The notes: generated by a model from the letters alone, not told the origin. DNA of 64,000 bases from an uncultured bacterium (GCA_964482725.1 CAYZYT010000005.1:24133-88132); one strand, 5' to 3'; positions 6,811 through 63,870 are shown, counted from the stretch's first letter. Program-made: numbers and translations.

Positions 6811-6814
6811 AGAT

Positions 6815-9952: not shown

Positions 9953-9978
9953 GGAGCCTCCCCGGATTTAGACTCTGT

Positions 9979-10057: not shown

Positions 10058-10082
10058 AGCGAGACTGAAAATACCAGTCTCC

Positions 10083-29900: not shown

Positions 29901-32900
29901 AGAGCTTTTTTGAGATTGCCTCGGAACAAACATGAACGCTATGTTGCGTCCGTTCATTCCTTCCCCGTTATCCAAAACCGAGATCGAATGACCGTTGGAA
30001 CGGATCAAAACATCTTTGCCCCGCGCCGCTTCGCGGGAATATCCGCTCGGCCCCGCGGGAACGATCTCGCGTTTGCTTTTAAACCCGTTCACTTCATCGG
30101 GTTTGTTATTGCCATACTGGGTCTGGATCGTCATTCCGGGGACATAGCAAAAGACCCGGTGGATCTCGTTCATCAGCTTTGCCTGAGCCTCTTCCGATAT
30201 CTTCTCGCCGGTCGTGACTCGGACGAGCGTCCCCTTTTTGAGATCGACTCCCGTCTCTCGCGTCGCCATATCCGCACGGATCTTCCGGACCTGGATATAA
30301 CTCTGTCCCTTCGTATCTTGCAAAATAGTCAGTTTGTAAACATTTCCACTTTCTTGGGCCGTGTAAACATCCACGCGATCGCGCCCCGTCCCTTTGAGCC
30401 ATGCGAGGATCTGCTTCACCCCTTTGCCGAATTGGCCCAGGCCGGCGCCCAATGCGTCCAGACTGTTAGCCACCGCTTCGATCAGACCCTGGGTCGGAGC
30501 ATTAGGATTTTGACCATCGATCGCTTTATCCTGGAACCGGGGATCCTCGTAGGTTCCGTTCAGGATCGTATCCAGATCGGCTGCCGTTTGCCCCCGATCA
30601 AGGAGCGCCTCAAGGATCCTGTCATAATCTTCTTTATCGCGGTCCTCCGGCTTCTCAGCGCGGCTGGCGGTAATACCAAAGTGAGCCAGGAGATCCTGCT
30701 TTTCGCTTGGCGTGAAATTCTTCTCGGAGAGACGCGTCATCGCTGCAACATAGTGATCCATATCCGGGCCGTTAAATCCTTCCCGGTCGTTGCGATAGTC
30801 CGTGGCCGCTTGCCTTGTCTTCACTTCCTTAGACGCCGGCCGTCCCTTTTCACTTCGAGCAAGAGTCCGATCCGAAACCCAATTCCAAAACTGACCCCAG
30901 TCGGGCATCGTAATGGATCTCACCTCGGCACGAACGAGGGGGGCTTCCCCCAATCCCTGGCCTCGGACATCGGAACGTTGCATCAGCTCCGGAGGATGGA
31001 TCCTATCGCGATTGCGAAGCGCCGATTCGACCGCCTCACGCGGCACCACCGTGCTGTCCAAGGATATCTGTTCACCCGTCGCAACATGCGCACAGACCAG
31101 CTTAACGGCCTTCATAAGATCTTCGACAGCGGACTCGAGGATCGGCCAGGTCACATCCGTAGACGAAGCGTTGCCCTTTGCGATCGCGGAATGAAGTTTT
31201 TCGATCTTGATTTCAAGGTCAGAAAGTTTGCTCTCAAGGAGATACGCGTCGAAAGCCTCTCCGACCGCTTCCTGAACCAACTCGGCCGGAACGCGCCGCG
31301 ACAGGTCCTCCTCATAGCCCTTTTCGTAAGATTTCATTTTGGAAGTTGCAATGATCTGCGTCCCGCCATAGGGCGCGATAAAAAACGGTCCTTTTTTATC
31401 CCCCATGAATGCTTCCAGGAAATTCCACATGGCGACCACATCGGTACGCATGATTTCCAGTTTCTGCAATTCAGTGACTGAATTCTGCTTCGGGGCGGAG
31501 GTTGGGTGCCACCAAGAGGCATCGACCTCACCAAGGAGTGACATCAATCGGGAATTCAACTCGTGTCGCAATCCCCGTGAAACCATGTGCCGGACCTCGT
31601 CAAGCGTGAGCGATCTCCCATTAACTTTACCGTTTACAATCTCCATGTGGGATATCGTCTCATCCGATGTTACCGGGGATATGATCCGGCCCTCAGAACG
31701 GCTTTGAACACCTAAGTCCTTCGCGAGCTTGCCGTGAGCCTCTACCAGAAATTTTTTCGTTAGCATCCATTCTTTAGGCCATGTTTTTGTGGAATCAAAA
31801 CCCGGAAATTTCGCGAACGGAATATGGACATACACCTCCGTCCCCTTATCCAGATACGCGACAAGAAGTCCTTGGGCTCCATTGTTGCGTCTGCCCGTCA
31901 CATAATTCACGACGTTCTCAAAATCGAACACCGCTCCCGCCTTGGTGACCCGGAGCCCTCCCTGGACCGCGGGCACTTGCGACAGGACAACATCGTATGA
32001 ATTCTTGCGCGACGGATCCCCGTTGTTCTGATTAATTTTCCCGTTGATCTCAAAGTTCTTCTTCATAATTGTGTCGTTGCCCATCACCAGCCGCAATTCG
32101 GAGCGAGGGGCAATCCCGGAGCGGGTTTCGGCGCGTCCCTCCGGAATAACTGCGGATGAAACAATCTTGTCACCCCGTTTGAGCGCTGCCTTCAAATACA
32201 AAGGGGTATAGGTTACTTCCGAGAGAACAATTCCTGGATCTTTAACTGTAAAGTCGTTATACGAAGCAGTCTCTGTTCCGAGCATATTTTGAACCGCAAA
32301 ATCCATCGTCGCAGCATCGGCAAAGATCAAATCCCTGCGTCCTGCCGAATCTGGCCGTTTACTGACCCAAGCATTCGGCGCCATCGGTTTTCCATCCTTA
32401 TCGAATGGAGGCTTAAAACCATATTCCGTCACCAGCTTATCAATCACCGCGGGGATCACCATATTCGGATCGGTTCGATTTGCGTTGGGATAGAGCGCGA
32501 AAAATGCATCCAAAAGCTGCCTCATTAACCCGCGAGGCAAAGAGGAATTGATTATGCATCCACGAATCGCCAGATTTCCTTCCGTCGGGATCCCATACAC
32601 CATCAGATCCGGCATCCTGCTTTCGGGCACGCGAACAAGACTCAACCCCTGACTTCCCTTCGGCAAAGTTTTTGAAACATAAAAAGGATGCTTTGTCCCG
32701 TCAGGCAGCCCAAAAACAACCACTTCCAGATTCCCCTCACGGCCGCCTTTAACCGTTCCATAGGGGTTTTTAATATCTAACGCCTCTACCGCAGACGCTG
32801 CTTGTTCCTCAGCTTTCGAACTGGCGCGTTCCTCGGAAACGACGGCCACCGCTGGTTTTTCCATCACCTCAACCGGCACAACTTCCTTCGGTTCCGGCAG

Positions 32901-49341: not shown

Positions 49342-52300
49342 TCACGCTGCGGTGGCAAAAACAAGATTATTGTCGTAACTTCGCTGGAGGGCATTGACCA
49401 AATTCTCGGCAACCCTCCAAAAACCATCCGAATCCTTATTCACCCCCACAAAACGGGCCGTTTCCCCGCCGCCAAGGGCCCAAAGAAGCGCAACCGCCAG
49501 AGACCCGCTTTTCTGACCCTGAGTTTTAAAGAAAGAAACCCTCTTTCTCAGGCGCTGGACCAGTTCCGTGGAGGGAAGGATCTTCTTTGAAAGATGAATA
49601 CTCGGCGCATTCGGCCGGTCAAAGCGGCTCTGAGCTCCCGCCAAGTCTTGACCGGTCCTCGTCACGCGATCAAGCTTCAAAAGAGCCCCGAGCTCTTTAT
49701 CCTGCACCTGCCCGCGCTCATTATAAACCACCACATGAAGCGCTTTATTCGATAGCGCCACGATCAAGTATTCCTGTTTCTGAGCCAGAGAAAGATTCTG
49801 AAAATCTTCCGCATCCACAAATACCGTCGCCGGCTGAACGCCCATACGAACATTCCTCACCATCCGGTCGCCGAGATCCCCCGATATCACCCTCTCAGAA
49901 ACCACCGCTACCCGAGGCTGAAGACTTGCGATAAATGATTCAGACCCCATCTTTTGAGTAGTGGCTTGCAACCTCTTTTGGGCAACATCTTCCCCTTTCG
50001 AATCCCGCACCTCGGAGCGGTCCGCGGGTAATGCCTTGAGATAATTCTCAACGTCACTCAGGATCTTACGATAATCTTCCCGGGCGATCACCTCCGGACG
50101 CTGGGACAGGGCCTCACGGAACTCACGCGTAAGTACGCCTAATTCCCGAGCTTCCTCAGTACTTCCCCTTTCGATCACAAAATCCGCCTGTTCCCGGGTG
50201 GGATCCACAAAAGATTTCTCACCCGCCGCCACATTATCCCAAAGCGCCAGAGTCCGGAATGGATCGCTGAACTTTCTGACCTCAACATCCCGGAAAAGTC
50301 TCCGCATGAACCGGATCTGCCACGGCGTGTCGAGAAAGATCTTCAAAACCGGCACGTCAGGCCCTAAGGCAGACATCACTCTCGGATGCAGTGAATGAAG
50401 TCCTTCCACCCCAATAATGTCGCGACCTCCCAACTGAGAGGTCCTGGCAGGCTCCGCAACGCCAAAAGTACTGGCTGGGATCACCGCCGTACCGTCCCTA
50501 TTCAGCTTTCGGATCGTTTCCGTCATCACGGGAAGATTGTAAGCATCGATATGATCAAAATCAGGCTTGCCGTTTCGAAGAGGACATTCATCCTCCGGCT
50601 TAAAATAGCGATCTTCGGGGACCCATTCAATCTTCCGACCCTGCCCCGCCATCAGACGATTGAACTCATCGAGCATCCATGTTTTTCCGGTAGCGGAAGG
50701 TCCCCCCACAAGCAGAACCGCTCTCGCCGGCAACTGTCGAAGTCTTTCAGAAACAACTCCGCTCAGAACGTCCCAAGTCCCACGGCCCCTTTTCTCGGCC
50801 AGATCTTTCCTGACTTGTGTTTCCATCTGATCGACAATCCCGGAGATGGTCTGGTCGGAGCCGTTTACGATCACGACCGCGTCCGATGGCTGGCGAAGCG
50901 GGGCAAAGGTGCGCCGGCGATCGAGATCATCGCGCTGCTGTATCTTGGCCATAACATCCTCGATCGAAACAGCCTGGGAACCTTCTTTCGCCCGGAACTG
51001 TTCCGCGCGGCGCCTGGCCCGCACTTCGACGGGAGAATCCAAATAAAATTTGGTACCCGTGGCATCCGGGAATACTTCGGTACCCATCTGTCGGCCATCC
51101 ACGACGGCATTATATTTCTCACCGGTCTCGCGGATCTTTTGAAGGACAAATATCTGAACGGCTTTATATTGCGAGACTTCCGCCACCACGCGCGTCACTT
51201 CCTGAGAACGGATCACATCCGTCACGCTCGCGCGGTCCAGAAGAACCTGCAAATCGCTCCCTTTCGCATCGAGAGATACGCTCGTCTTTTCAAGAACCGC
51301 CGTCACGGCAGCTTCGTTCAGCGGATCGATCCCTTCCCGGATCATTTTGTAGGCGATGGCTCTAAAAATGACGCCCGAGTCCACGTACAGGTATCCGAGG
51401 CGCCGCGCCAATTCCAGCCCGGCGGTTCCCTTCCCCGATCCTGACGGCCCGTCTATGGTCACCACAACGGTGCTCAGCGGATTCATTTTAAGAGCGAGCG
51501 TTTTCCCGGCCTCGCGCACGTCCGAACGGTTTTGAGCGCGCACCGCAGGACGGGAGCTAACAAACTTTTGAATCTCGGCCACATCCTTCGCCGGGGCGTT
51601 ACTCACGCCGATATAGACGTCGAACTTCCCGTTCGGAACCTTTCTCATCTGCTCTATTTTCCGGTCGATCCACACACCGGGCACCCACTTGGGGAGTACG
51701 GTCCGCTTCTTGAAAAACTGCCTGTATTCTTGTTTGGCGAGATCTTGAACCGTTTTCGAAAGCAGGAATTCCTTGATTCCCTCCAGGGAAAATCTCACAA
51801 AGACATCTTTATTGTCCTCGATCTCCACCGACGGCATGCTATGGGGGCCGTTTTTCATGAATGCCACGATCGCCCGGTTGACATAGCCATCATCCATTTC
51901 TCCAAAATAGACAATATTACGGATCTTCTTGTACTTCGGGTTCTCGACCAGGACACGCATGTGCGGGTATTTTGCCGAATCCAACCCCCCGATCACTTGT
52001 TGATAAAGTTTGCGGAGGCTTAAAAAGAACTTGAACTCGAAAACCGTATTTTTACTCACGGCGTCCCATTCCTTCCCCGAGGAATCCCGGACAAATTCAT
52101 GGATCGCCCGGATCACGCCCACGTTGATCTTTTTCAGGGACTTACTCCGTTTGATGACCTCCCGGTAAACCCCGGAGATCTCCCCCGCCAGGCCCACCAT
52201 CTTGTCGCGAGGATTTCTCGGCCCCAGCATCGCCTCGACCATATCCGCGACCGACTCGAAGACAGCGGCATGAACCACCTTCGCCCCAGGACCGTTGAAG

Positions 52301-55300
52301 GCAAGCAGCTCACGGATCTTTTTTTCTAATGCCGCGAAGGAGAACTTCCATTCCCGGAATATCGAGATCACGGCCAGAGCGTCATTGAGCTCAGCCGCAC
52401 TGAGCTCGATCTTCGGCCGCTTGGCCGGACGGGCCGCATCGTCCGGTTTGCCGGTCCGATCGTTTCTAAGAACAAACTGACGGAGCTCCCGGCTCAAGGA
52501 CTTCTGACCTTTCAGGTAGGGCTCAAACGACTCCTGGACCTTACGGATCGTGTTGAGAACGGACTGCCTTTGTTCAGGGGCCGCCGTCGCCCCGTCGCCG
52601 AGGATCCTCGCCCCGTCTCTCCGGTAGAACCATCCCAGAAAATCCACCAAAAAATATCCGGGAAGTATATCGATCTCTGCGTCCGTCAAGCCTTGTTTGC
52701 CCGCGGTCCTCTGATAAACCGACAAGGCCCGGAGGAGATACTGCTCCAAATGATCCGTCACATAACCCTGCCGTGGATGCCCTGTCCGGAAAACAACCGA
52801 TGTAAAATCTTCCATTCTGTGACCGAATCGGACATCTTCCCAATCGGTAATTGCGCGTATCCTCCCGGCAGCATCAAAAAAGCAATTGGCGATATTCATA
52901 TCGGAGTTAATAGGCTTTTTCGGAATTTTCTTCGAGAGCGCCCAAACCCCGGGGAAAACATCATCCAAAACCGAGAGGATCGTCCGCGCCTCATCCGGAG
53001 CATAGGCTTGAAGAATACGCTCGCGTCCGTTCGTCCGGCTTTCCTCCATTTGCTCATAATTCCGGCTGCGGGTCCACCGGCCAAGCCCCGCCCAACGTTC
53101 CTCGGACACGTCCAGGGTGGCTGCATGGCTCGAGGCAAGCCATCGAACCACTTCATCGAGCATGGGGGGGGAAGCCTCTTCCCGGTATACATTTTTCAAT
53201 CCCTCGATCCAATTCTCGACCACAAAATATTCTTTGAGATGCGTCGACTGATTAGAAATGCTGAAAATGAGATTAGCGGGTTCACTCATTCCAAAACGAA
53301 AAAGCGCCGGAATAGGGATCCCCTTACGCATATTCCGGTGGATGATATCCGCGATAAACAGGCTCTCCCGTTCTTCGTTCGCCGAACTCAACCGGGAAAG
53401 CTTCTTCAGACAAAATAGCCCCTGTTCCGTTTTAAGGATCGGGATATCTCTTCCGTCATGCCTCTTGAACCGAACGGATTTTAGTGCACCAAGCCCGTAT
53501 TCCGTGAACAGCCGGGCGACATCCTCGTCCGTCCACCCCGCGAAGGCCTCCCTCGCCCTGGGAATTCCAAGAAGCGCGGACGGACTCACCTCCGTCTTGT
53601 CCCCCGGACCTCCACGCATCTCGGAGCGAACCACAAGCGAGTCCCGAGTAGTACTTGAATCAACAGAATTCAAGTGCATCTCGGAGCGAGCCTCACGCGA
53701 GTCCCGAGAAGTCTTTGGCGCAACAGGCGTCAAAGGCATCTCGGAGCGAGCAACGGTGATGAAAATTGCGGCGGTGCGCAGGTAGCGGCCTTGTGAGGAA
53801 GGTAAGGCATAGTCACCATTCGCCCATATCTTTGCATTGCCTCCATGGTCAAGAAGCATCGCTTGACTAAGGCCATATTTCGAGGCTAATGCCGCGCTTT
53901 CAACCAACGTGGAACCCTTACGACCGGATTTCCCCGAGATCCCAAGAACCACAAGTTCCCCGCCGGGAGTCAAGCCCATAAGGGTCCGCGGATATATCCC
54001 CGGTTTGAAAAATATTTTTATCTTCCCTTCCTCGAATTTGAACTGCCCTCGCTCCGTAATTTCACCGTCATTTTCGAGATACCCGCTATCCTTCAACGCC
54101 TTTCGGAGAACGGCTTCCGGAACCGCAACCTCCGTGGTCACTCGATCCGTTCCCTCTTTGAAGCTGAGAGCAACGGTCAGATCCATCCGCACCGGACTTT
54201 TCCAGGCGTTCTGGGCCAACGCATAACCGTTCCGGGACATTTGAGAAACATCAAAATAGATTTCTTCCTTGGAAGCCAACTTCCCCGTTGATGAATCGGG
54301 AAGGTCTCTGGCCAGGATTTTGGGTAAGGTATAAACATGCCGCAGATCTTGAAATTGGGGAATGATCGATTCGATGTCTTCCCGCGGATGACCTCTTCCG
54401 TCCAGTAAGAACTGTCCGAAGGTCGCGTAGTCGATATCTTTTTGAATCTCCCCCCCATTCGCGAAAGCATGGATCGTTCCGTTATTTCCGGCCCGGTAAG
54501 AAACATCCTCCATCAAAAACGTCCCGTTCTTCCGGAGGATCAACGAAGAATACGGATGAGCCCGGATATCCTCGCCGACCGGATAAAAGAGCTTCCCGTG
54601 TGCGAAGGTCACGAATCCTTGATTGGCGAATAAACTCGAATTGTCCACGGCAGCCACCACGGTCTGAGACGGATGGCTTGCTTCAAAACGCCGGATCATC
54701 GCGTCATCCGTTTCGATCTTTTCATGGACTGCGGCATTATCGGTTATCAAAGAACCATCGGCCTCGCGAAAAAAAGCGGTTTCCGTGTTCCGGTCAATGC
54801 CGAATCTTCCCTGAAGTTCCTCCTGGATGGCCACATGAACGCCCCTGCCTGAGGATGGCGAAATTCGAAAGGAAACCACTTCCGAAGACCCCGCCTGAAA
54901 TTGAACCGTCTCTTTTGCGACGGGGAGATACCTCACCTCGGAGCGCCGGCTCGAAGCAGTTAACGCCGTTTTTACTTCTGAGCTCAGAGACTTTTCTCCG
55001 TTAAAGTACGGCGCAAATTGCTTTTGAATTTCCTTGATCGCCCGGAGGATCATCGTCCTCTGGTTCGGGGTCGCTTCTCTTCCTTGCCCCGTCACTCCCT
55101 TCAGATCTTTCACATAAAACCAGCCCAGAAAATCCACGAGAAAGAACCCGGGAAGGCTGTCGATCTCTTCATCCGTCAGCCGCCGGTCTCCCGCGGCCTC
55201 CTGGTAGGCTTGCAGGATTTGGATCAGATCCCGCTCCAGATGTCCGACCACATAACCTTGGCGAGGTCGTCCGGTGCGAAAAAGGATCGAGGTGAAATCT

Positions 55301-58300
55301 TCGATCCGGTAACCCAACCTCGAAGCTTCCCAATCCGTGATCTCGCGGATCTTTCCGTCAGCGTCAAAAAAACAGTTCGCGAAATTAAAATCGGAGCTGA
55401 TGGGCTTGAGCGGAAGTTTCCGGAGCAACGAGGAAACCTTGGGAAGGGCCTGGTCCAAGACGGACAATATCGTCTCGCTATCTTCTTCCGAATAAAATCG
55501 TTTGATCTGCTCCCGGTCCTCGACGCGGCCCCGCTCCATATCCCGGAGCTGCCATTCACGGGTCCACCGCTCCAGCCCCTTCCAATCCGAATCGGTCACA
55601 TCCTCCGTCGCGGCGTGGATCCGATACAGCCATCGAGCGGCCTCTTGCAACATTTCGGGCGTCGCCTCTTCGCGATGGACGCTTGGGTATTCCGTGATCC
55701 ATCTTTCAACCATAAAGTATTCTTGGGTGTGCAACTCGGTGTCCGTGATCCTGAAGAATAAATTTTCGCGCTTTTCCTCTCCAAGACGATAAAGCGCCGG
55801 AATGGGGGTTCCCTTCTGTTTATTCCGATGAACCGTATCCGCGATAAAAAGCATCTGCCTTTCCCTGTCGATCGGATCGAAAGTCGTGATCTTTTTGAGG
55901 CCAAAGAACCCACGAGTCGTTTCAAGAATGGGAATACTTTTATCATTATGCGCTCTCAATTGAACCGCCTTTAGCTCACCGAGCCCGTATTCTTTAAAAA
56001 GCCTCGCGATGTCCTCATCCGCCCATCCCTGGAAGGCTTCCCTCGCCCCGGGAATTCCAAGAAGCACGGACTGACTCACTTCCGTCTTGTCCCCCGGACT
56101 TTTGGCGGCAGCCTCGCGCAGCGGGTATTCATTCATAGAAAGGTTGTGATGGGCGAAAATATTCATCGAATGGACTAGCTGTAATTTCTCTGCGCGTATC
56201 CTTCCAAAAGTATCCTCCCGATGCCTTTTCACCCATTCAAGAAGCTGCGCTCTTTCGTCACGCGTCAATTCCCTGATAGGAGAATAAAGCGTGATCACTC
56301 GCCGTTCCGGCGTTTTTCCGTCAAAAAGGATCGTCTCGGCCTGTATCCGGCCGTCCTCGGGATCCACCGTGACTCCCTGAACCCAAATATCAAAAGGTTC
56401 CCTTGCCTTGGCCATTTGTCCGGTTTTCTCCTGAGCATCTTGGATCTTTTCATCTGAGAAAGGTTGCTTCTGTAGGTGGAATGTCTCCAAAGTAAGGTGG
56501 TAGGCCTCGCGCGGAAAAATAAAGAATTTCTGGGCGAAGGGTTGTTTTGAAAATTCATCGGTAAGTCGGATCAACCCGCGTACGGTCTCATGACCTTCTT
56601 CGGGGTACACAGCAGCGGACAAACTGTAAAGAACCGCTGGGACACCTTCCCGGTTGGCGACACGCTCCCAGAGATTGATCTTCAGCCCCGGAACTTTTCT
56701 GAATTCAACGTATCTGGAATAGGACTCTTCCGTATAAAGTCGTCCCGCGGCTATCGCCTGCTCGGCCTTCAGGAAAGACGGCTCAAAAACAGTCCGCCGC
56801 GCCTCATCCAGGATCGTTTGTTCTTCCGGTGTCCTTACCTCGGAGCGGACTATCGGGTCGGATGGATCGGGCCTCGCATCATCATAAAGGGAACGCACAT
56901 CGGCCCAAAATTCCTTGCCGTCCCATTTGAACGGCATTCCGTAAATAACGAACCGCTGATCCTTCGTCAGTGCCGGCGGCATCTGTGCCTTGACCGCTGC
57001 CAGATCACAAATGTCGGGGATCTGATCTATGGCCGCTTCGATCTTTTTGTTGATGACGTCGGCCGCATACCAAAATTCGACAGGGTATTTTCTCAGGCGG
57101 AGATTACTGTTAAAGACCGCTTCCCCGCCTGGCGCAAGCAGTGAGATCTGGCCCAGGAGCCGCAACCATTTAGCCCATCGCTTGTAGGCATCATCCCCCT
57201 TAGCAAGTCGCGTCGAAACCATCATCAGCGAATTCAGGATATCGATCGAATCGCGCCACTGTCCGCGAAGCTTCTCTTCTTCCGCCCCAAAAATCGCCCC
57301 GATAGTCTTATTAAGATCTGAAACCTCTTCCGGGGTCAGGTCCTGATCCGAATTCATGGAGGATTTCGCCAGCTTTTCAAACCGGTACTGGTCATAATTC
57401 CGGAGAGACCGGTCCCGCGCTTCCGAATCGAGCCACGTCACCACCGTCGCGAGCCTTGCCGGGTAATACACCATACTGTCCGGAAGCACACTCGCCGCAT
57501 CCGCGATATTGTGCAGCAACAACTTCTCAAAACCTTTTTCATCAAGCCCTTCCTTGAATTTTGTGTAACGCAACTCTCCGAGATACAGCGATCCTGCACT
57601 CATGTGGCGTCGGATAAGCGAAGAAACAGCCCGAGCCCTCTGCGAAGACATGAGAAGATCGCTCTGGAAGAAAGATTCTGCATAATCCGCCCCGCTTGCC
57701 TCATGCCCCACATCCGCGTTGCCAAAGATGTATCCAAAATCATGGGCTTTGATCTCAAGCCACATTTCCGTTTTTTCATCCAGCGTTAATGCATCATAAA
57801 CGGACTTCACCCGTCCAAGATCTTTCCGGTACCCATCCTTATCAGGTGAGGTGGTTCCGTGCTTTAAGCGGTTGAGAAAGTAATCAAAATTGCCGGTGGT
57901 AAGGGCGCGAAAGAAACGTTCAACACGTATCATGTGCCGTGCTTTCTCGGGATTAGCTTCCAACGGTTTCTCTTCATTTCCCTCTTTGATCTTCCGGAAC
58001 GGTTCGCTGGCCGAAAGATCGAATTTCTCAACCTCGAGATCCGGAAGGTAAGTATTAACGATCTTCATCGTCGCATCGCTGACAGGCTCCGGGCCCTTAA
58101 GCCCTGAAAGGGCCTCAAGGATCTCATCGATAGTGATCTTGACATAATCCTTCTGGCCCGCCGACTTCGTCTGAGAGCGTTCCGCTTCCGCCTCGGCAAG
58201 ATAGCCTTCTAACATTTTTGCTACATCCCGCGCCTCGGAGCGAACGGACAGAAGACCTGCGCCTTGCGCCTCCCGAGAAACATTTTCCACTTCAGCCGCA

Positions 58301-61300
58301 TCCGATTCCGGAGAAACCATGTCGTTATAAACATCAGAAAGCACTACGCTGGCTTGCTGAGCGGTTATGGGCAAAAGCAGAGCAGGCGATTTTTCAGTCA
58401 CTGAATGTTCTTGAACCGCTTTTAAAAAAGAAGAACCGATAGCTTTCAGATTGGCCGAAAAAGCAAAACGCTCTTCGGCTGATTTTCTGGCCATCGCCCC
58501 CATTTGATCCCTCTCCGCCTCATCACCCGCAAGTTGACCGATCCTCCGCGCCAGATCCCGGTAATTTCCACGAGGAATCACAAAACCGGTGACACCCTCG
58601 ACCAAAGTTTCAGGCAGCCCTCCTCCGTCAGAAACGATGGCAGGAACACCGCTGGCCTGCGCCTCCACCGGGACGAGACCGAAGGGTTCAGCTCCCAACG
58701 TGGGATAGACCACAAGATACGATGCGTCATACCAGCGCCTCATTTGTTCGACTGACTGGCCTCCCACAAAAAGGACTTCCACCTTGAGGCTCTTCGCAAG
58801 ATCCTGCAGCTTGGCAAGATCATTTTGCAATGGATTGTGCTCGGGCCCCAAAACAACAAAAGACAATTGAGAGCTCCGTGCGGGATCCTGTCTCAATAGT
58901 TCTGCGGCAGCACGGAGGGTAACCTCCTGGCCCTTGCGGGGCTCGATACGGCTCGGGTGAAGGATGATTTTCTTGCCCGAAAGGCCATACTGCTTACGAA
59001 GCGCCTCAACAGACATACGATCTTCGGCATTCCGTTCTTGAAGAAAATAGCTCATGTCAGAAATAGGATATAGGCGCTCTACTTTTTCACTGCCAAGGTC
59101 TGAAAAAATCTTCTGAAAGGCATTACTGCATGTCACCGCCGCATCCGAGTTCCTTACCAAATAGGCAACCCCTTCCGTAATGGCGCCGCCATGGAAAAAG
59201 TAATGAGAAGGGATCCGTAACTGGTGAGAAAATGAAAGGGCGGTTTTCAAAAGGATAAACTGCGCTTTTGAGCTATTCAGAGCGATCAGATCGATCGGCA
59301 TCCGTCTCTGGATCTCAGCGAGAAGCCTTTCCAAATGGATGCTTACTTCCCCGTCCGTGAGAGGAATGTTGTCAGGACTCCTTTTAGGAATCCCATGGAG
59401 CACAAGGCGGTTCCCGCTTTTGGGGGCCTCAAACAATGTTTCCGATGGCTCTGTCCCCGCACCCAGGTACAGAAGCTCGAACGTAAATCCTTTTTCTGTT
59501 CTCAAGAGCGTCTTGATCAAATTCTGCTGGTAAGTCTGTATCCCACCTATTTTAAGCTGCTGAGGACTGATGGAAAGTACATGCCGCACGCCCTTCGCAC
59601 CAAGCTCACCTCCGGGCAAAGACGGAACGGTCCCCTCGTTCAATTCACGGAAGAAACGCGCCCAGTTTTCCTTCAAAAGCGCCTCACGTTGCTTTTCCGA
59701 CAGGACCGATTTATCAGAAACAGTTGGTGACCCAGCTGCCAATAGTCGCATCTCGGAGCGAGCTTCAAGCGAGTCCCGAGTAGTACTTGAATCAACAGGA
59801 TTCAAGGGCATCTCGGAGCGAGCCTCACGCGAGTCCCGAGAAGTACTTGAATCAACAGAATTCAAATGCATCTCGGAGCGGACAGAAGAAGTAGCAGTCG
59901 GTGCCGTTGCAGGTTCCGCTAAAACCTCTGTCGGAAAATTCGTGATTTTATAAAGAGCGTAGGGCTTCCCTTCAAAGAGAAAGGATTCAACGAGAGCGCC
60001 CTGCAGCGGGTACGCTTTGGGCTCATCTTTGCGGGATTTCGGCCAGGGCTTATAATTAAAACGTTTCACGGCAGGGGGCACTTTCTCAGCCTGCAGTGCA
60101 ATAAAGAAACCTTTTTTTGCTTTAAACAAATAAGATTCCTCATTGCGAGCCCAGGCAATCGGCCGAAAGCTCTCCAATCCGACCAGCAGGGGTTCTCCCT
60201 GAACATGCAAGCGTGCAAGCCTGCTACCTTTCAGAAGGGCTGCGATGTGTTCTCCATCCGAACCCGTCAGGAGGTTGCCAAGGACCCCCCAAAGAGAGAC
60301 TTGAAATATCATAAGCGAAACACCCGGGAAAAAACCCAGATACCACAAAATGAAGGATACGCAAGCAACGCTAAGTTCCATCAAAGGACCCGATACAGCA
60401 ATCCAAATACGTTGGATGGGGAGAAGTCTAAAATCGTCAGGCGAGTACGTGGTAACAAATCCCGGAAAAAGGCTATAAACAATATCCTGGACAGTCGCTT
60501 GCCCGTCAGCCTTCCCTCTTTTTTGAATTATCTTCGCCGAGATAAAATGACCTGCCTCATGCGCCGCTACTGCGCTAATGGCAATCAAGGCAAAAACAAA
60601 TCCCAAAAAAGGCATGTCGATCACGAATGCGCCATAAATACTCTTATAAGATTCAATCCGTTTTTTGACCGCACGACTTGGCTGTCTCGAAAGAAAAGGG
60701 CTGTACTCGGAAATGAACAATTCGCGGATAACAAAAGCTAGACTGAATGCGGTGAACATCACTATTCCGGGCATGCGATCGAGAACAAAAAAAGCCCCTG
60801 TCACGGAAAGAACAGCACGGAGAAGGTTGAGTCTCCGGTTAAAGGTTGCCACCTTTTTCCAGTCGAACACGCCGTGTCGCTTAAGATAAGATTCGTACTG
60901 ACTGACAAAAAAATGGATCGCATCCGAAAATATTTTATTACTGAAAACCACAAGACCCCAGGCAAGCCCGAATAGTACCGTCACAAAACCAAAACCGATA
61001 ACCCTTTGCCCAAACTTCATCGGGTTAACAAAATAGTCACGCAGAGCTTTTCCGATCGGCACGCGCTTTGCAGCCTGCGTGACGCTCTCCCCCCCGGAGG
61101 CATTTCGAACCACCGGCTGGGCTTGAGAAGGCAATGAAAATACTGGATCGGGTACCGGAAGGCGCCGGATCGAGAAATTGTCCGCAAGGTGGACCAGCTC
61201 CGCTTTCTCCGCACGGAACAAGCCCATCACCCGATCGCGATTCCGGATAACCCAGCTTTGCACCTGGCTTGTCTCATCCGCCGTCAAGGGCTCGAGGGGC

Positions 61301-63669
61301 GTCATCAGTGTCATGGCCTGAATGCGGGGCGCCCAGCGCCACGAAGAAAATGCGTGAACGCGGATCCTGCCGGTTTCTTCATCGATCGCGACCCCTGCCA
61401 CGTCAATATCAAAGGGCTGCTTATCCTTGAGAAATGCCTCCGTCTCTTCCCGTCCCGTTGTCACTTCCGAATCGCTAAAAGGCGTTTTCCGGGAATTACG
61501 GACGGGCCATAAGGTGAGATGGATCGCCTCTGAAGGAGTCCTGAAAAATTTCGAGGCCGCGAAAGGCAACTCTCTGTAGAAATCATCCTGGAGGCGGGTC
61601 ATCTCCCTGCTGACAGCTCCAGCATGATCCGGAGCAACCAGCAAGGACAAGCTGTAGAAAGGCGCCAGTGTCCCGTCGGATGCAAAAAACCGTTCGCGGG
61701 CACTCACCCCCCACTGGCCCGGAATTGAAAGCGCTTCTTCCGTATAAGAAAAACCAAGACCTTTTTCGAACGCTTCATCAAAAGCCTTCCCCCTCAGTTC
61801 CGAACGAGGTTTTACGATCCCGCCTTCTACAGACTCCGGCTGAACTTGATCGCCTGGGTTAAGGCCGGCAAGCCGGCGCTCGATCAGTTGCGGGTCTGAA
61901 ATATTTCCCATGGCCTCGACGGATGAAGTGATGGCGCGAAGCGTCGATTGAGCGGAAGCATCCTCGCCCGCAACGGCGGCCGAATAGAAAATGCTGGGAG
62001 GTTTATTGGCATGGGCCGCGAGAAACGGCGTTTCGAAGGTCCGATGGCCTTCCGTCATGAGCTGCTTATAGAAATCTTGGTGTCTTTTGTTCGCGGAAGT
62101 AATCCTGGGAGAAATGACAACATAGGAGATCCCTTTCTCCCGCAACATTTCTTTAATACTGTTGGCGTGGAAGCCGCCGTACACCAGCACTGCTGGTGCG
62201 GGACTCGGGGAACGGCTAACGGTGAACGATTGAGACTTTTCGTTCTGCGCTATGCTTTCCACGTCCCCCTTCGTAATTTCGTTTCCCGTTCCCCGTTCCA
62301 CGTTTCCCGCTTCTATGTATTTATCCATCGCTCCCGAGATCGTGCCATCCCGCTGCAGGGCAACTTCGTAGAACCGGACCGCCTCCTGGATATGGCGCTC
62401 CCATTCTCTGGACAAAACCAGGGGTCGGCGCGTCAGCGACACAATAAAATCTGCCAATCTCCGTGTGTCCAACCGACGCAGCGTCGTTTGGACCGCTTCA
62501 TATTCCGCCTGGGTCAGTTCGATCCGGTTAAGCCTCTTGAGAAGGCCCAGCCCCTGATAATAAGTGAATATTTCCCGATCTCTTTCATTTTGAAGTAAGG
62601 CCACCGAGACATTCTTTTCCAACCGCGTGATCTCTTCAAAGACCCCTTTGAAATCCAGGGCATTCAGCTGCTGGTTCAATTTCGGGTCATGAGTCGTCTC
62701 GGCCATGAGAAGCATAGAAATGGCAGGATATTCTTTAGCGAAATCCCAAGCAGAGCGCGATTCAGGGCTTTTCAAATAAAACGCCTGAAGCTCTTTTAAA
62801 TAATTAAGCAGGGGCAGCTTCCCTTCCGAAAAAAGCTTCCTCGCTTTCATCCAGGTCTTTAGGTCTTTGGGAAAGTATTGATTCGCAAGCGTGGTGATCT
62901 GGCCCCAAAGTTCCGCGAGATCTTCTTCGATGTCTTTGCGGCTCTGGGAGGAATCCTGATAGCATTTGATGTTCTCACCGTAGAGCTTGAGATCCTCAAC
63001 GCCGATCAACTCAAAATCCTTCGGGATGACCTGAGACTTGAGACTTGAGACTAGAGACTTGCCGTCAAAACTTTGGTCTTTTTTACTAGAGTCTCCGGTC
63101 TCTGGTCTCTGGTCTAATCGGCTTCGCCGATTAATATGCGCATACTCCGCGCCGCCGATGCGGAGCTGGTCCATCATAAAATACGAGACCTTTTCCTTGG
63201 TCGCGGGATCTTTGATAAATCCAAAGAACTTGTCGGTGGGAACCGGGCCTTCGTAGCCTTCTTCAAAGACGGTCCGGACGCCGTCCCGCTCCACCAGAAG
63301 CCGGATGATCTTGGCAATATTCACCTGCGCTTCGAGCGAGTCGTGGGCGTCTTGGATGAGCACGATCCTTTGATCGTGCCGGGAAATGGCTAACGATGAA
63401 CGGTTAACGATTTCGTTATTACGTTCCCCATTCCCCGTTCCACGTTCCCCGCGGTAGACTTCGTCTACCGAACCAAGTTCTTTCGGAATAGAAAAGGAAG
63501 CGGGAGCAACGGGTTCGATAACTTTGGAAGATTGACCGGCAATGGCCTGGGGGGCATAGCGGGAGACATCAAAAAGGACAAAAGCCAGGATGACAAAAAT
63601 CGCCGTAGCCTTTCGAAATAAAAGGCCCCTTTGACAGGTTTTACAAGACGATTCCGCATCGTAAAACAT
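49342..63669 (-). CDS. giant 4775-aa membrane multidomain protein fusing phosphoesterase, kinase, glycosyltransferase and glycosidase domains behind a conserved N-terminal module
   Basis: Single uninterrupted ORF in the track. N-terminal hydrophobic anchor or signal. Domain landmarks were located by back-translating motifs to the DNA; see the sub-features below. Confidence 0.85.
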   Translation of the reverse strand: MFYDAESSCKTCQRGLLFRKATAIFVILAFVLFDVSRYAPQAIAGQSSKVIEPVAPASFSIPKELGSVDEVYRGERGTGNGERNNEIVNRSSLAISRHDQRIVLIQDAHDSLEAQVNIAKIIRLLVERDGVRTVFEEGYEGPVPTDKFFGFIKDPATKEKVSYFMMDQLRIGGAEYAHINRRSRLDQRPETGDSSKKDQSFDGKSLVSSLKSQVIPKDFELIGVEDLKLYGENIKCYQDSSQSRKDIEEDLAELWGQITTLANQYFPKDLKTWMKARKLFSEGKLPLLNYLKELQAFYLKSPESRSAWDFAKEYPAISMLLMAETTHDPKLNQQLNALDFKGVFEEITRLEKNVSVALLQNERDREIFTYYQGLGLLKRLNRIELTQAEYEAVQTTLRRLDTRRLADFIVSLTRRPLVLSREWERHIQEAVRFYEVALQRDGTISGAMDKYIEAGNVERGTGNEITKGDVESIAQNEKSQSFTVSRSPSPAPAVLVYGGFHANSIKEMLREKGISYVVISPRITSANKRHQDFYKQLMTEGHRTFETPFLAAHANKPPSIFYSAAVAGEDASAQSTLRAITSSVEAMGNISDPQLIERRLAGLNPGDQVQPESVEGGIVKPRSELRGKAFDEAFEKGLGFSYTEEALSIPGQWGVSARERFFASDGTLAPFYSLSLLVAPDHAGAVSREMTRLQDDFYRELPFAASKFFRTPSEAIHLTLWPVRNSRKTPFSDSEVTTGREETEAFLKDKQPFDIDVAGVAIDEETGRIRVHAFSSWRWAPRIQAMTLMTPLEPLTADETSQVQSWVIRNRDRVMGLFRAEKAELVHLADNFSIRRLPVPDPVFSLPSQAQPVVRNASGGESVTQAAKRVPIGKALRDYFVNPMKFGQRVIGFGFVTVLFGLAWGLVVFSNKIFSDAIHFFVSQYESYLKRHGVFDWKKVATFNRRLNLLRAVLSVTGAFFVLDRMPGIVMFTAFSLAFVIRELFISEYSPFLSRQPSRAVKKRIESYKSIYGAFVIDMPFLGFVFALIAISAVAAHEAGHFISAKIIQKRGKADGQATVQDIVYSLFPGFVTTYSPDDFRLLPIQRIWIAVSGPLMELSVACVSFILWYLGFFPGVSLMIFQVSLWGVLGNLLTGSDGEHIAALLKGSRLARLHVQGEPLLVGLESFRPIAWARNEESYLFKAKKGFFIALQAEKVPPAVKRFNYKPWPKSRKDEPKAYPLQGALVESFLFEGKPYALYKITNFPTEVLAEPATAPTATSSVRSEMHLNSVDSSTSRDSREARSEMPLNPVDSSTTRDSLEARSEMRLLAAGSPTVSDKSVLSEKQREALLKENWARFFRELNEGTVPSLPGGELGAKGVRHVLSISPQQLKIGGIQTYQQNLIKTLLRTEKGFTFELLYLGAGTEPSETLFEAPKSGNRLVLHGIPKRSPDNIPLTDGEVSIHLERLLAEIQRRMPIDLIALNSSKAQFILLKTALSFSHQLRIPSHYFFHGGAITEGVAYLVRNSDAAVTCSNAFQKIFSDLGSEKVERLYPISDMSYFLQERNAEDRMSVEALRKQYGLSGKKIILHPSRIEPRKGQEVTLRAAAELLRQDPARSSQLSFVVLGPEHNPLQNDLAKLQDLAKSLKVEVLFVGGQSVEQMRRWYDASYLVVYPTLGAEPFGLVPVEAQASGVPAIVSDGGGLPETLVEGVTGFVIPRGNYRDLARRIGQLAGDEAERDQMGAMARKSAEERFAFSANLKAIGSSFLKAVQEHSVTEKSPALLLPITAQQASVVLSDVYNDMVSPESDAAEVENVSREAQGAGLLSVRSEARDVAKMLEGYLAEAEAERSQTKSAGQKDYVKITIDEILEALSGLKGPEPVSDATMKIVNTYLPDLEVEKFDLSASEPFRKIKEGNEEKPLEANPEKARHMIRVERFFRALTTGNFDYFLNRLKHGTTSPDKDGYRKDLGRVKSVYDALTLDEKTEMWLEIKAHDFGYIFGNADVGHEASGADYAESFFQSDLLMSSQRARAVSSLIRRHMSAGSLYLGELRYTKFKEGLDEKGFEKLLLHNIADAASVLPDSMVYYPARLATVVTWLDSEARDRSLRNYDQYRFEKLAKSSMNSDQDLTPEEVSDLNKTIGAIFGAEEEKLRGQWRDSIDILNSLMMVSTRLAKGDDAYKRWAKWLRLLGQISLLAPGGEAVFNSNLRLRKYPVEFWYAADVINKKIEAAIDQIPDICDLAAVKAQMPPALTKDQRFVIYGMPFKWDGKEFWADVRSLYDDARPDPSDPIVRSEVRTPEEQTILDEARRTVFEPSFLKAEQAIAAGRLYTEESYSRYVEFRKVPGLKINLWERVANREGVPAVLYSLSAAVYPEEGHETVRGLIRLTDEFSKQPFAQKFFIFPREAYHLTLETFHLQKQPFSDEKIQDAQEKTGQMAKAREPFDIWVQGVTVDPEDGRIQAETILFDGKTPERRVITLYSPIRELTRDERAQLLEWVKRHREDTFGRIRAEKLQLVHSMNIFAHHNLSMNEYPLREAAAKSPGDKTEVSQSVLLGIPGAREAFQGWADEDIARLFKEYGLGELKAVQLRAHNDKSIPILETTRGFFGLKKITTFDPIDRERQMLFIADTVHRNKQKGTPIPALYRLGEEKRENLFFRITDTELHTQEYFMVERWITEYPSVHREEATPEMLQEAARWLYRIHAATEDVTDSDWKGLERWTREWQLRDMERGRVEDREQIKRFYSEEDSETILSVLDQALPKVSSLLRKLPLKPISSDFNFANCFFDADGKIREITDWEASRLGYRIEDFTSILFRTGRPRQGYVVGHLERDLIQILQAYQEAAGDRRLTDEEIDSLPGFFLVDFLGWFYVKDLKGVTGQGREATPNQRTMILRAIKEIQKQFAPYFNGEKSLSSEVKTALTASSRRSEVRYLPVAKETVQFQAGSSEVVSFRISPSSGRGVHVAIQEELQGRFGIDRNTETAFFREADGSLITDNAAVHEKIETDDAMIRRFEASHPSQTVVAAVDNSSLFANQGFVTFAHGKLFYPVGEDIRAHPYSSLILRKNGTFLMEDVSYRAGNNGTIHAFANGGEIQKDIDYATFGQFLLDGRGHPREDIESIIPQFQDLRHVYTLPKILARDLPDSSTGKLASKEEIYFDVSQMSRNGYALAQNAWKSPVRMDLTVALSFKEGTDRVTTEVAVPEAVLRKALKDSGYLENDGEITERGQFKFEEGKIKIFFKPGIYPRTLMGLTPGGELVVLGISGKSGRKGSTLVESAALASKYGLSQAMLLDHGGNAKIWANGDYALPSSQGRYLRTAAIFITVARSEMPLTPVAPKTSRDSREARSEMHLNSVDSSTTRDSLVVRSEMRGGPGDKTEVSPSALLGIPRAREAFAGWTDEDVARLFTEYGLGALKSVRFKRHDGRDIPILKTEQGLFCLKKLSRLSSANEERESLFIADIIHRNMRKGIPIPALFRFGMSEPANLIFSISNQSTHLKEYFVVENWIEGLKNVYREEASPPMLDEVVRWLASSHAATLDVSEERWAGLGRWTRSRNYEQMEESRTNGRERILQAYAPDEARTILSVLDDVFPGVWALSKKIPKKPINSDMNIANCFFDAAGRIRAITDWEDVRFGHRMEDFTSVVFRTGHPRQGYVTDHLEQYLLRALSVYQRTAGKQGLTDAEIDILPGYFLVDFLGWFYRRDGARILGDGATAAPEQRQSVLNTIRKVQESFEPYLKGQKSLSRELRQFVLRNDRTGKPDDAARPAKRPKIELSAAELNDALAVISIFREWKFSFAALEKKIRELLAFNGPGAKVVHAAVFESVADMVEAMLGPRNPRDKMVGLAGEISGVYREVIKRSKSLKKINVGVIRAIHEFVRDSSGKEWDAVSKNTVFEFKFFLSLRKLYQQVIGGLDSAKYPHMRVLVENPKYKKIRNIVYFGEMDDGYVNRAIVAFMKNGPHSMPSVEIEDNKDVFVRFSLEGIKEFLLSKTVQDLAKQEYRQFFKKRTVLPKWVPGVWIDRKIEQMRKVPNGKFDVYIGVSNAPAKDVAEIQKFVSSRPAVRAQNRSDVREAGKTLALKMNPLSTVVVTIDGPSGSGKGTAGLELARRLGYLYVDSGVIFRAIAYKMIREGIDPLNEAAVTAVLEKTSVSLDAKGSDLQVLLDRASVTDVIRSQEVTRVVAEVSQYKAVQIFVLQKIRETGEKYNAVVDGRQMGTEVFPDATGTKFYLDSPVEVRARRRAEQFRAKEGSQAVSIEDVMAKIQQRDDLDRRRTFAPLRQPSDAVVIVNGSDQTISGIVDQMETQVRKDLAEKRGRGTWDVLSGVVSERLRQLPARAVLLVGGPSATGKTWMLDEFNRLMAGQGRKIEWVPEDRYFKPEDECPLRNGKPDFDHIDAYNLPVMTETIRKLNRDGTAVIPASTFGVAEPARTSQLGGRDIIGVEGLHSLHPRVMSALGPDVPVLKIFLDTPWQIRFMRRLFRDVEVRKFSDPFRTLALWDNVAAGEKSFVDPTREQADFVIERGSTEEARELGVLTREFREALSQRPEVIAREDYRKILSDVENYLKALPADRSEVRDSKGEDVAQKRLQATTQKMGSESFIASLQPRVAVVSERVISGDLGDRMVRNVRMGVQPATVFVDAEDFQNLSLAQKQEYLIVALSNKALHVVVYNERGQVQDKELGALLKLDRVTRTGQDLAGAQSRFDRPNAPSIHLSKKILPSTELVQRLRKRVSFFKTQGQKSGSLAVALLWALGGGETARFVGVNKDSDGFWRVAENLVNALQRSYDNNLVFATAA
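50175..50745 (-). other. giant protein 2: uridine-kinase / phosphoribulokinase-family domain
   Basis: VLLVGGPSATGKTW P-loop at 50690..50730; IGVEGLHSL..., FLDTPWQIRFMRRLFRDVEVR and ADFVIERG (50175..50192) line up with Udk blocks. Confidence 0.6.
50830..51480 (-). other. giant protein 2: cytidylate kinase domain
   Basis: VVVTIDGPSGSGKGTAG at 51425..51470, then YLDSG, VVDGRQ and the lid region. A complete Cmk-like unit. Confidence 0.65.
52450..53590 (-). other. giant protein 2: APH/CotS-like kinase-fold module, copy 2 (paralogous to copy 1)
   Basis: SDMNIANCFFDAAGRIRAITDWEDVRFG at 52800..52925, ending ILPGYFLVDFLGWFY. Roughly 50% identical to copy 1 over about 360 aa. Confidence 0.5.
53600..53770. 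repeat. 63-bp tandem coding repeats (2.5 copies; 21-aa unit RSEMxLNxVDSSTxRDS(R/L)EA), cluster 2
   Basis: CATCTCGGAGCGAGCCTCACGCGAGTCCCGAGAAGT... repeated. More than 90% identical to cluster 1 at 59745..59890 over about 110 nt. Confidence 0.75.
53780..54850 (-). other. giant protein 2: phosphodiester-glycosidase-like domain
   Basis: RTLMGLTPGGELVVLGISGKSGRKGSTLVESAALASKYGLSQAMLLDHGGNAKIW at 53815..53990, the characteristic C-terminal block of this family. Confidence 0.5.
55000..56090 (-). other. giant protein 2: APH/CotS-like kinase-fold module, copy 1
   Basis: SDFNFANCFFDADGKIREITDWEASRLG (Brenner-type D..N, then the DWE/DFE motif) at about 55290..55400. Ends with LPGFFLVDFLGWFY. Confidence 0.5.
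56130..56810 (-). other. giant protein 2: 2H phosphoesterase domain, copy 2 (both HxT motifs present: GHETV and YHLTL)
   Basis: GHETVRGL at 56572..56600 and AYHLTLETF at 56465..56525. Confidence 0.55.
57480..57790 (-). other. giant protein 2: HD-type phosphohydrolase-like domain
   Basis: LEIKAHDFGYIFGNADVGHE ... LLLHNIADAASV gives an H..HD..H..D arrangement. Confidence 0.35.
58400..59600 (-). other. giant protein 2: GT4-family glycosyltransferase domain
   Basis: EPFGLVPVEAQASGVPAIVSDGGGLPE (58621..58700) with an upstream Rossmann half starting at VRHVLSIS (59570..59620). Confidence 0.6.
59745..59890. repeat. 63-bp tandem coding repeats, cluster 1
   Basis: Same unit as cluster 2, in direct orientation and about 6 kb away within the same ORF. 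Confidence 0.75.
60250..61020 (-). other. giant protein 2: multi-pass membrane segment with HEAGH (M50/site-2-protease-like)
   Basis: Helices from MKFGQRVIGFGFVTVLFGL (60981..61020), through AISAVAAHEAGHFISAK (60530..60585), to VLGNLLTGSDG (60250..60300). Confidence 0.45.
61290..61800 (-). other. giant protein 2: 2H phosphoesterase-like domain, copy 1 (first HxT motif degenerate, second intact as HLTL)
   Basis: EAIHLTLWPV at 61495..61525; the upstream position reads DHAG instead of HxT/S. Confidence 0.4.
62000..63669 (-). other. giant protein 2: N-terminal module shared with giant protein 1
   Basis: IVLIQDAH at 63335..63375 and LVYGGFHANSIKEMLREKGISYVVISPRI at 62105..62200. A 19-nt stretch GCGTCTTGGATGAGCACGA is identical in both giant genes (63343..63361 and 34761..34779). 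Confidence 0.5.
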
Positions 63670-63870
63670 ACTTTTTAAAACCTCTTAGTTTTAGATTTCC
63701 TCAATACACGAGGATACTAAAAATGTAACACCTCATGCGCGATTGTCAATGAGGCGTGGGGTAAAAGTCTCTCCTGATTTCGGGGAACGAGAACCTAGGG
63801 GACAGACAATCAATGGACGCCCTCCCCTGTGTGAAGGTTAAAGTTTACGAAGAACTTCATTACAGCCCGA

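Follow-up and report, generated by a model that had tools for sequence, protein, structure and literature searches.

The stretch of DNA analysed here comprises 64,000 nucleotides (nt) from an uncultured bacterium (GCA_964482725.1 CAYZYT010000005.1:24133-88132) and is referred to below, at its full length, as the window. It contains a giant open reading frame (ORF), giant gene 2 (g2), whose predicted product is a multi-enzyme protein composed of a head domain, a series of cargo modules and a tail domain (Table 1). At two of its module junctions, g2 carries closely similar tandem linker clusters, and these clusters, together with a pentapeptide that their repeat unit bears, are the subject of the present analysis. 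In the protein library, the g2 product is present as P0053, an identical NCBI protein from a 161-kb contig, and it is the sole member of its cluster. A second giant gene (g1) lies in the same window, so that two paralogues of one family are found less than 14 kb apart. The g1 head aligns with that of g2, its product ends in SVDQAA, and it gave no Pfam match at E ≤ 0.001. Rfam and tRNA scans of the 64-kb window were empty.

Table 1. Features of giant gene 2 and its paralogue, with positions counted from the first letter of the window and residues (amino acids, aa) from the start of each product.
Feature	Position (nt)	Strand	Residues (aa)	Description or context	Evidence
Giant gene 2 (g2)	49342..63669	-	4775 aa in total	Head-cargo-tail multi-enzyme protein	ORF, translation, Pfam, NCBIfam
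Head domain	61807..63669	-	1-621	N-terminal hydrophobic helix aa 14-32; defines family
RSELR	61792..61806	-	622-626	Head / 2H-like module 1
2H-like module 1	61015..61800	-	624-885		Self-comparison with aa 2289-2567
M50-like membrane module	59881..61014	-	886-1263	Four hydrophobic helices, HEAGH motif	PF02163 (sub-threshold)
Linker cluster 1	59747..59880	-	1264-1308	Between M50-like membrane module and GT4 module	Tandem Repeats Finder, sequence reading
GT4 glycosyltransferase module	58243..59745	-	1309-1809		PF00534, 111 bits, aa 1555-1729
RSEAR	58228..58242	-	1810-1814	GT4 / HD-like module
HD-like helical module	56848..58227	-	1815-2274		Homology to P0062, HD pattern, fold matches
RSEVR	56833..56847	-	2275-2279	HD-like module / 2H-like module 2
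2H-like module 2	55969..56805	-	2289-2567	Joins APH-1 without junction motif
APH module 1 (APH-1)	54970..56121	-	2517-2900		PF01636
RSEVR	54931..54945	-	2909-2913	APH-1 / NAGPA
NAGPA phosphodiester glycosidase module	53749..54930	-	2914-3307		PF09992, 47.2 bits, aa 3138-3302
Linker cluster 2	53615..53748	-	3308-3352	Between NAGPA module and APH-2	Tandem Repeats Finder, sequence reading
APH module 2 (APH-2)	52480..53631	-	3347-3730		Homology to APH-1
RSDVR variant	51514..51528	-	4048-4052	Before cmk-udk module
(d)CMP kinase + uridine-kinase-like module	50020..51513	-	4053-4550		TIGR00017, PF00485
RSEVR	50005..50019	-	4551-4555	Before tail domain
Tail domain	49345..50004	-	4556-4775	Ends ...LVFATAA
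Giant gene 1 (g1)	17925..35114	-	5729 aa in total	g2 paralogue, same head, similar C-terminus

The two tandem clusters lie in direct orientation within a single ORF, as the initial annotation of this DNA had proposed, and that ORF is g2 itself. Read on the coding strand, cluster 1 encodes RSEMHLNSVDSSTSRDSREA followed by RSEMPLNPVDSSTTRDSLEA and a closing RSEMR, and cluster 2 encodes RSEMPLTPVAPKTSRDSREA followed by RSEMHLNSVDSSTTRDSLVV and the same RSEMR; both copies are laid out as two full 20-aa units (60 nt each) that start with RSEM, with RSEMR as the close. Tandem Repeats Finder reported a period of 60 nt for both arrays, with 2.2 copies and 91% matches at 59748-59880 and 2.3 copies and 81% matches at 53616-53751. 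The unit is therefore not the 63-bp, 21-aa element first described, and the 2.5 copies given for it reduce to 2.2-2.3, that is, two full units plus RSEMR. The limits of the clusters, previously placed at 59745..59890 and 53600..53770 with an identity above 90%, were likewise redrawn to those of Table 1: the repeat finder returned a common stretch of exactly 134 nt, of which 120 are identical (89.6%), and the longest exact runs span 37, 33 and 24 nt. Comparison of the flanks revealed that the similarity stops at the cluster edges, and the in-register offset between the copies amounts to 6132 nt, or 2044 codons, in frame. A search of the window for a 39-nt core of the unit gave three matches, all inside the two clusters (0 of 100 shuffles matched), and no further cluster copy was found elsewhere in the 64 kb.

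Taken by themselves, the clusters are an ordinary kind of intragenic repeat. A phase-variable contingency repeat was ruled out by a unit of 60 nt, which is a multiple of three, present in only 2.2 copies inside coding sequence, and a CRISPR array by units that run head-to-tail without spacers, in frame and coding. The clusters are spacer cassettes, two copies of one, at two different module junctions of a beads-on-a-string protein, and the main point, which the initial annotation had overlooked, is that their repeat unit bears a module-boundary motif found throughout a family of giant proteins.

This motif, the pentapeptide R-[S/A]-E-x-R, recurs in both giant genes of the window far more often than expected. 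The form RS[ED]xR was counted eight times in g2 and six times in g1 (0.29 and 0.23 expected), and R[SA]ExR seven and ten times (0.37 and 0.31 expected), while no copy of R[SA]ExR is present in the window's 18 remaining ORFs (8,551 residues). In g2, the sites begin at aa 622, 1304, 1810, 2275, 2909, 3348, 4048 and 4551, between recognisable domains, and all of them (seven strict motifs and the RSDVR variant) fall outside the Pfam domain envelopes. The codons that encode the motif differ from copy to copy in g2 and g1, and the signal thus lies in the peptide and not in the DNA; a DNA-level signal was ruled out on the same ground.

The head domain of g2 defines a large protein family, whose members combine a conserved head anchored in the membrane and a conserved tail with a variable string of enzyme modules. 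Searched against 1.84 billion cluster representatives, a head-domain profile retrieved 8,938 of them at E ≤ 1e-3, a number that falls to 4,789 at E ≤ 1e-30, and many of the best 150 matches are 2,000-6,700 aa long; g2 matched the head profile A2 with E = 1.3e-202. Searching a word-indexed database with the N-terminal 620 aa of g2 yielded about 50 homologues, and all those with a named source belong to Candidatus Omnitrophica/Omnitrophota. With taxonomy taken from the names attached to head-domain homologues, the head-cargo-tail family appears to be specific to Omnitrophota. The heads of the nearest members are 50-58% identical to that of g2, and the g2 tail shares 55-73% identity with the C-terminal ends of P0057, P0060, P0085 and other members, with 26 subjects matched at E ≤ 1e-3. 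In the head, residues H109, E137, E175 and H178 are near-invariant. Neither the head nor the tail domain matched a Pfam or NCBIfam model.

Family statistics were drawn from the 173 best-scoring or first-found of the 8,938 members (438,398 aa). Among these proteins, R[SA]ExR was observed 905 times against 28.6 expected, with L, V, M, A or I at position 4 in 88% of cases and at most 0.36 bit of information at the flanking positions. The motifs are spaced by a median of 301 aa, and the first one typically marks where the head domain ends (median position 514). Of the boundaries of cargo homology blocks shared by different family proteins, 52-53% have a motif no more than 40 aa away, as compared with 16-20% for random positions. 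These comparisons establish R-[S/A]-E-x-R as a module boundary marker across the family, in which the pentapeptide separates the modules inside otherwise unconserved, probably disordered sequence. Motif pairs 13-45 aa apart are common, and 65 of the 173 proteins contain pairs no more than 45 aa apart. Considered together with a homologous cassette in the family protein P0173 (see below), these pairs identify the two g2 clusters as elaborated junctions. At the other end of the chain, the C-terminus is -AA or -SA in 108 of the 173 proteins (63 and 45, respectively), where it follows a hydrophobic stretch. A conserved ending of this type recalls recognition tags such as the ssrA-type -LAA.

Structure predictions agree with the beads-on-a-string layout. 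In these models, the modules fold as compact units, the confidence score (predicted local distance difference test, pLDDT) drops below 50 just before the motifs, namely at aa 607-621 of the head model and in the last 8 residues of the HD-like model, and a helix of the HD-like model begins one residue past RSEAR. The AF2 model of the head has a pLDDT of 78. Inside the head, a 41-nt direct repeat (88% identical) at 62270-62310 and 63412-63452 gives rise to short inserts rich in G/N/E/R, at aa 73-86 and 454-467, both of them in low-confidence loops of this model. Upstream of the g2 start, by 190-290 nt, two 39-nt direct repeats (90% identical, 62 nt apart) are found at 63861-63899 and 63923-63961 and might represent a candidate regulatory site.

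The identity of the individual modules is supported to different degrees. For the block between the clusters, the GT4, APH and NAGPA domains named in the initial annotation were recovered by Pfam and the second 2H-like copy by sub-threshold Pfam matches only, while the label 'HD' found no profile behind it. The duplication of the APH module, which had been put at about 50% with the GDKTEVS..LLGIP.AREAF.GW lead-in included, was reproduced by segment-wise self-BLAST at 54% aa identity over 383 aa, including the GDKTEVS lead-in; the DNA of the two copies is 63% identical. The Pfam APH domain (PF01636) scored 53.6 bits against a cut-off of 23.2 at aa 2618-2813, plus a second stretch, and the copies agree at D243, N248 and D262-W263-E264. 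These D-x4-N and D-W-E residues are presumably catalytic, as in APH / choline-kinase-type phosphotransferases. The 2H-like modules are 32-37% identical to each other by the same segment-wise comparison; of the two H-x-T/S motifs of 2H phosphoesterases, each holds one as a clear H-L-T and the second in a degenerate form (MTL / ITL), and the sub-threshold Pfam matches (E 0.007-0.05) concern copy 2 only.

The module at aa 1815-2274 gave no Pfam, NCBIfam or PDB sequence match and no match in the word-based database search. It is 72% identical to aa 575-1026 of P0062, where it is bounded by RSEIR and RSEMR, and its pattern H..HD..H..H..H..D (H98, H162-D163, H175, H208, H239 and D243) is invariant in six homologues. 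The corresponding model is helical (pLDDT 85), with weak fold matches to the tRNA-processing enzyme 3wfo-3wfs (E ~0.02) and to the phosphodiesterases PDE5/PDE10 (E 0.4-1). Phosphodiesterases are members of the HD superfamily, and the module is best termed HD-like, an assignment that is unproven. The GT4 module is 48-51% identical to aa 3129-3639 of P0060, and the NAGPA module is 41-45% identical to P0001 and P0002; in a word-based search, the only matches to the NAGPA-APH2 segment were a pair of NAGPA proteins, of which one bears the name of a Chlamydiae metagenome-assembled genome. The M50-like module is site-2-protease-like, lies in mid-cargo with N-x6-DG downstream of its HEAGH, and is the sole protease-like element in g2. 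Near the C-terminus, the (d)CMP kinase (aa 4070-4287) scored 188 bits against TIGR00017, whose equivalog cut-off is 135.55, and is followed by a uridine-kinase/PRK domain (PF00485, aa 4321-4505). The only stand-alone relative of the cmk module (50800-51468) in the window is a Cytidylate_kin2-type gene at 9239-9952, and this housekeeping (d)CMP kinase may exist solely as part of the giant ORF.

Overall, the explanation that best accounts for these findings, and one that we hold with good though incomplete confidence, is that the two clusters are spacer cassettes at module junctions of the Omnitrophota head-cargo-tail family, that they were copied recently, and that their motif is a putative processing site. 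The last element is the most tentative: R-[S/A]-E-x-R may be a site of proteolytic processing, a proposal to be taken seriously rather than relied upon. If so, the ORF would encode a polyprotein from which the individual enzymes are released, and each cluster would be a spacer peptide with a cleavage site at its end. The proposal derives from a near-invariant pentapeptide that sits in otherwise unconstrained linkers, often stands at both ends of short spacers, and separates autonomous enzymes, including a CMP kinase of housekeeping grade. It also builds on an earlier study of Omnitrophota giant proteins, whose authors suspected post-translational cleavage and stated that the cleavage points are unknown, which blocks domain-wise analysis (West-Roberts et al., bioRxiv 10.1101/2023.11.21.568195).

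The main rival, which we regard as possible but somewhat unlikely, is that the chain remains uncleaved and that the motif and its spacers serve as flexible hinges or as docking sites for a chaperone, scaffold or export factor, the clusters being longer hinges. A motif that lies within low-confidence, S/R/E/D-rich linkers, that is missing where some modules are joined, and for which a protease partner was not found would suit this role. A hinge, however, needs neither an almost invariant pentapeptide with uninformative flanks nor the same pentapeptide at both ends of a spacer, as is seen in the 65 proteins mentioned above, although these points leave the docking-site version unaffected. Since trypsin also cuts after R, standard tryptic data are uninformative on processing at the motif. 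Returning to processing, its most far-reaching form would be a phylum-wide polyprotein system in which R-[S/A]-E-x-R is the processing site, long and giant ORFs are equivalents of operons, a hydrolase encoded by the family itself (with the head domain as candidate, given its weak fold resemblance to the erythromycin-esterase/ChaN superfamily) performs the cleavage, and modules are reshuffled at the cassettes by in-frame recombination and gene conversion, such that the two clusters would be a fresh footprint of this process. We consider this full scheme speculative and rather doubtful.

The recent copying of the cassettes is indicated by their codons. None of the 34 conserved codons in the linker pair differs synonymously, whereas 94 of the 208 same-residue positions in the APH pair use different codons (45%); at the APH rate, the probability of zero synonymous change in the linker pair is roughly 1e-8 to 1e-9. 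All 10 differing linker codons are nonsynonymous, and six of them are clustered in one patch, within one half-unit. This pattern implies that the DNA identity reflects recent events and not constraint on the peptide. Among the four units, two informative sites support the grouping (1a,2b | 1b,2a) and three support (1a,2a | 1b,2b), which are mutually incompatible, and no informative site unites both units of one cluster. The split thus suggests block copying of the entire two-unit array, followed by an exchange of segments between the copies. From these comparisons we strongly infer that the identity of the cluster DNA results from recent copying of the whole two-unit array between junctions, or from ongoing gene conversion, and that the duplications of the APH and 2H modules are much older than the cassettes.

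It is improbable, by comparison, that purifying selection on a functional 45-residue peptide, rather than recent DNA exchange, keeps the clusters alike. Such selection could account for P0173, in which a homologous two-unit RSEM cassette (61% identical) is retained at a junction with unrelated neighbours despite a head that is just 36% identical to that of g2. It would nonetheless leave synonymous differences, of which the conserved codons show none, and the changed codons all alter the residue and are concentrated in one half-unit; nor are the cluster codons forced by codon usage, for the codons of these residues vary in other parts of g1 and g2. A separate origin of each array by tandem expansion in place was ruled out, as no informative site joins units of the same cluster. 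Co-duplication of the linker with the APH module was also ruled out, given that no cluster precedes APH-1 and that the APH pair is saturated at synonymous sites.

Recent copying between junctions is seen in other members of the family. Near-identical flanks at distant junctions were detected in 9 of the 173 proteins, in 17 pairs, against 2 in a between-protein control. The single family gene whose DNA was examined for junction repeats, that of P0033 (locus L002, GCA_964581425.1), contains 292-nt direct repeats at 7208-7499 and 7973-8264 that are 99% identical and spaced by 765 nt; both begin at an RAEVR junction motif, and a single module lies between them. These alignments show that junction cassettes are copied within genes. 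Three small genes and about 1.9 kb separate the P0033 gene from resolvase-family (serine) recombinase genes.

The modules themselves have been shuffled among family members. Those of g2 recur in other orders in P0060, P0062 and P0144, where they are bounded by the motif and have different neighbours; P0144, for example, carries APH, HD-like and udk modules in an order unlike that of g2, and the relatives with the closest heads (50-58%) share head and tail with g2 but at most one cargo module. In g2, unequal recombination between the cassettes would delete or duplicate 2044 codons in frame, comprising exactly four modules bounded by the motif (GT4, HD-like, 2H-2 plus APH-1, and NAGPA). Because the cassettes are in frame and placed at module boundaries, whole modules would be removed or duplicated with the frame kept, and cassette recombination would offer a route for the shuffling seen in the family. 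We regard recombination at junction cassettes as a plausible shuffling route, and for this 6.1-kb block as a hypothetical one.

The suggestion in the initial annotation that the clusters are substrates for recombination can accordingly be retained in part. It fits the traces of past events, namely the lack of synonymous differences, the incompatible informative sites, the 292-nt pair in the P0033 gene and the reordered cargo, and it is weakened by a homology that is short and 10% diverged. In RecA-dependent recombination, short diverged homology gives rare crossing-over. With 10% divergence and a longest perfect run of 37 nt, crossing-over between the clusters should therefore be rare. For assembly, too, the clusters seem to pose a modest hazard once reads or k-mers exceed about 40 nt.

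Several observations weigh against the overall explanation. Crossing-over of the RecA type is poorly served by 134 nt of 90% identity in which no perfect run exceeds 37 nt, and polymorphism of the 6.1-kb block is not documented, with no close relative of the region found in the genome and metagenome contig collections (queried with the NAGPA-linker-APH2 segment and an APH-1/APH-2 alignment). Within each cluster, only the last RSEM is followed by R, and the first two units hold partial motifs. Furthermore, the motif is not obligatory, as the 2H-2/APH-1 and cmk/udk joins do without it. The resemblance of the P0173 cassette at 61%, as compared with 36% for the heads, hints at constraint on the peptide or at transfer, either of which would fall outside a simple spacer picture. 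As to processing, no cognate protease was identified by Pfam, by fold search or among the g2 domains. The M50-like module remains just under the Pfam cut-off (PF02163, 25.5 bits at aa 1026-1140 against 27.2), and M50-type proteases cleave within membranes. The fold matches of the head to the erythromycin-esterase/ChaN fold (erythromycin esterase EreC, its relatives 3b55 and 2rad, and ChaN) are not significant (E 0.14-2.5).

The two motif-less joins of g2 lie at 55969-56121 (2H-2/APH-1) and at about 50722-50802 (cmk/udk). At the former, REAAAKS aligns opposite the RSEMRGG of APH-2. At the latter, the motif is absent from g2, and in P0144 the udk module is preceded by RAELR. From such alignments, motifs seem to be lost or gained at individual junctions.

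It is highly improbable that the second cluster, or the join at a cluster, is an assembly artefact in which two family genes or strains were linked through the repeat. The concern arises from a shared sequence in a paralogue-rich family with both g1 and g2 in the same window, from a source that is a metagenome-type contig, and from exact look-ups that did not find an independent assembly of the g2 region. In contig-index look-ups, exact queries with g2, ArgRS and NadE found nothing; only NrdD gave a match, to a 16.6-kb Logan contig that stops short of g2. The clusters, however, differ at 14 of 134 positions and share no exact run beyond 37 nt, the reading frame stays open for 14.3 kb through both of them, the GC content is even across both joins, and the architecture is complete from head to tail. 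In addition, duplicated junction cassettes of the same kind occur in independently assembled genes. Elsewhere in the window, the 8,064 nt of 3815-11878 match an independently assembled Logan contig from run SRR12261223 with 100% identity, which places the same strain in this public run. Barely tenable, finally, is the notion that the motif marks internal translation starts, yielding separate proteins from one mRNA with M, V or L at position 4 read from ATG, GTG or TTG: these residues make up 70% of position 4, M is enriched 9-fold and NTG codons stand at 6 of 8 g2 sites, but A, I, T, S, G and N also occur at position 4, with codons GTA, GTC, GCG and GGC in use, the preceding R-S/A-E and the following R hardly vary although a start codon does not require them, and no stop codon precedes any motif site.

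Papers on giant Omnitrophota genes ask whether such a gene yields one working chain or a product that is cut. Enriched about 30-fold in a family of thousands, the boundary motif provides concrete candidates for cut sites in these giant proteins, and it offers a practical rule for where to divide them when their modules are to be modelled or annotated. The likeness of the two cassettes shows that spacers are copied from junction to junction, which suggests how whole enzyme modules are gained, lost and reordered within one frame, and the equivalog-grade (d)CMP kinase inside g2 implies that housekeeping functions may hide in giant ORFs. Full-text literature searches (with the pentapeptides, and with Omnitrophota plus polyprotein) returned nothing relevant, and a description of the motif was not found in the searchable literature. 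Term searches of two preprints (bioRxiv 10.64898/2026.06.07.730766 and 10.1101/2023.11.21.568195) likewise returned no boundary motif, no discussion of linkers and no shared head or tail domain.

Among known systems, g2 resembles the multi-enzyme class of very long Omnitrophota proteins, in which many enzyme Pfams (sugar metabolism, kinases, phosphotransferases) tile one chain and some are repeated (bioRxiv 10.64898/2026.06.07.730766). With its GT4, APH (in two copies), NAGPA, cmk, PRK/udk and M50-like modules, g2 belongs to this multi-enzyme type, but at 4,775 aa it falls below the 10,000-aa cut-off that the same preprint sets. Most nucleotide repeats in those long proteins are described there as decayed (bioRxiv 10.64898/2026.06.07.730766).

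As regards function, g2 comes closest to modular multi-cargo proteins that undergo processing, such as MARTX toxins or viral polyproteins. The g2 family shares with the MARTX toxins of Vibrio an arrangement of conserved N- and C-terminal regions around a variable set of cargo. In MARTX toxins, cargo domains recombine between conserved ends and are released by inter-domain processing. These toxins are defined by a cysteine protease domain (CPD) and glycine-rich repeat arms; no CPD-type or RTX-type family was present among the Pfam matches of g2, and g2 differs further in its metabolic or housekeeping-type cargo enzymes, in its boundary motif and in having nothing that points to secretion. Viral polyproteins and prohormones have short conserved cleavage sites and spacer peptides, and g2 is similar in placing a short, near-invariant site between its units, sometimes doubled around a short spacer; unlike these, g2 belongs to a chromosomal bacterial gene family and its cleavage is putative. 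Concerted evolution by gene conversion is known for the intragenic repeats of bacterial surface proteins. The dispersed copies in g2 behave alike, in that their DNA remains near-identical while flanking duplicates diverge. In contrast to the surface-protein repeats, however, they consist of two dispersed 134-nt copies only, and these are situated at the junctions of enzyme modules rather than in a repetitive structural region.

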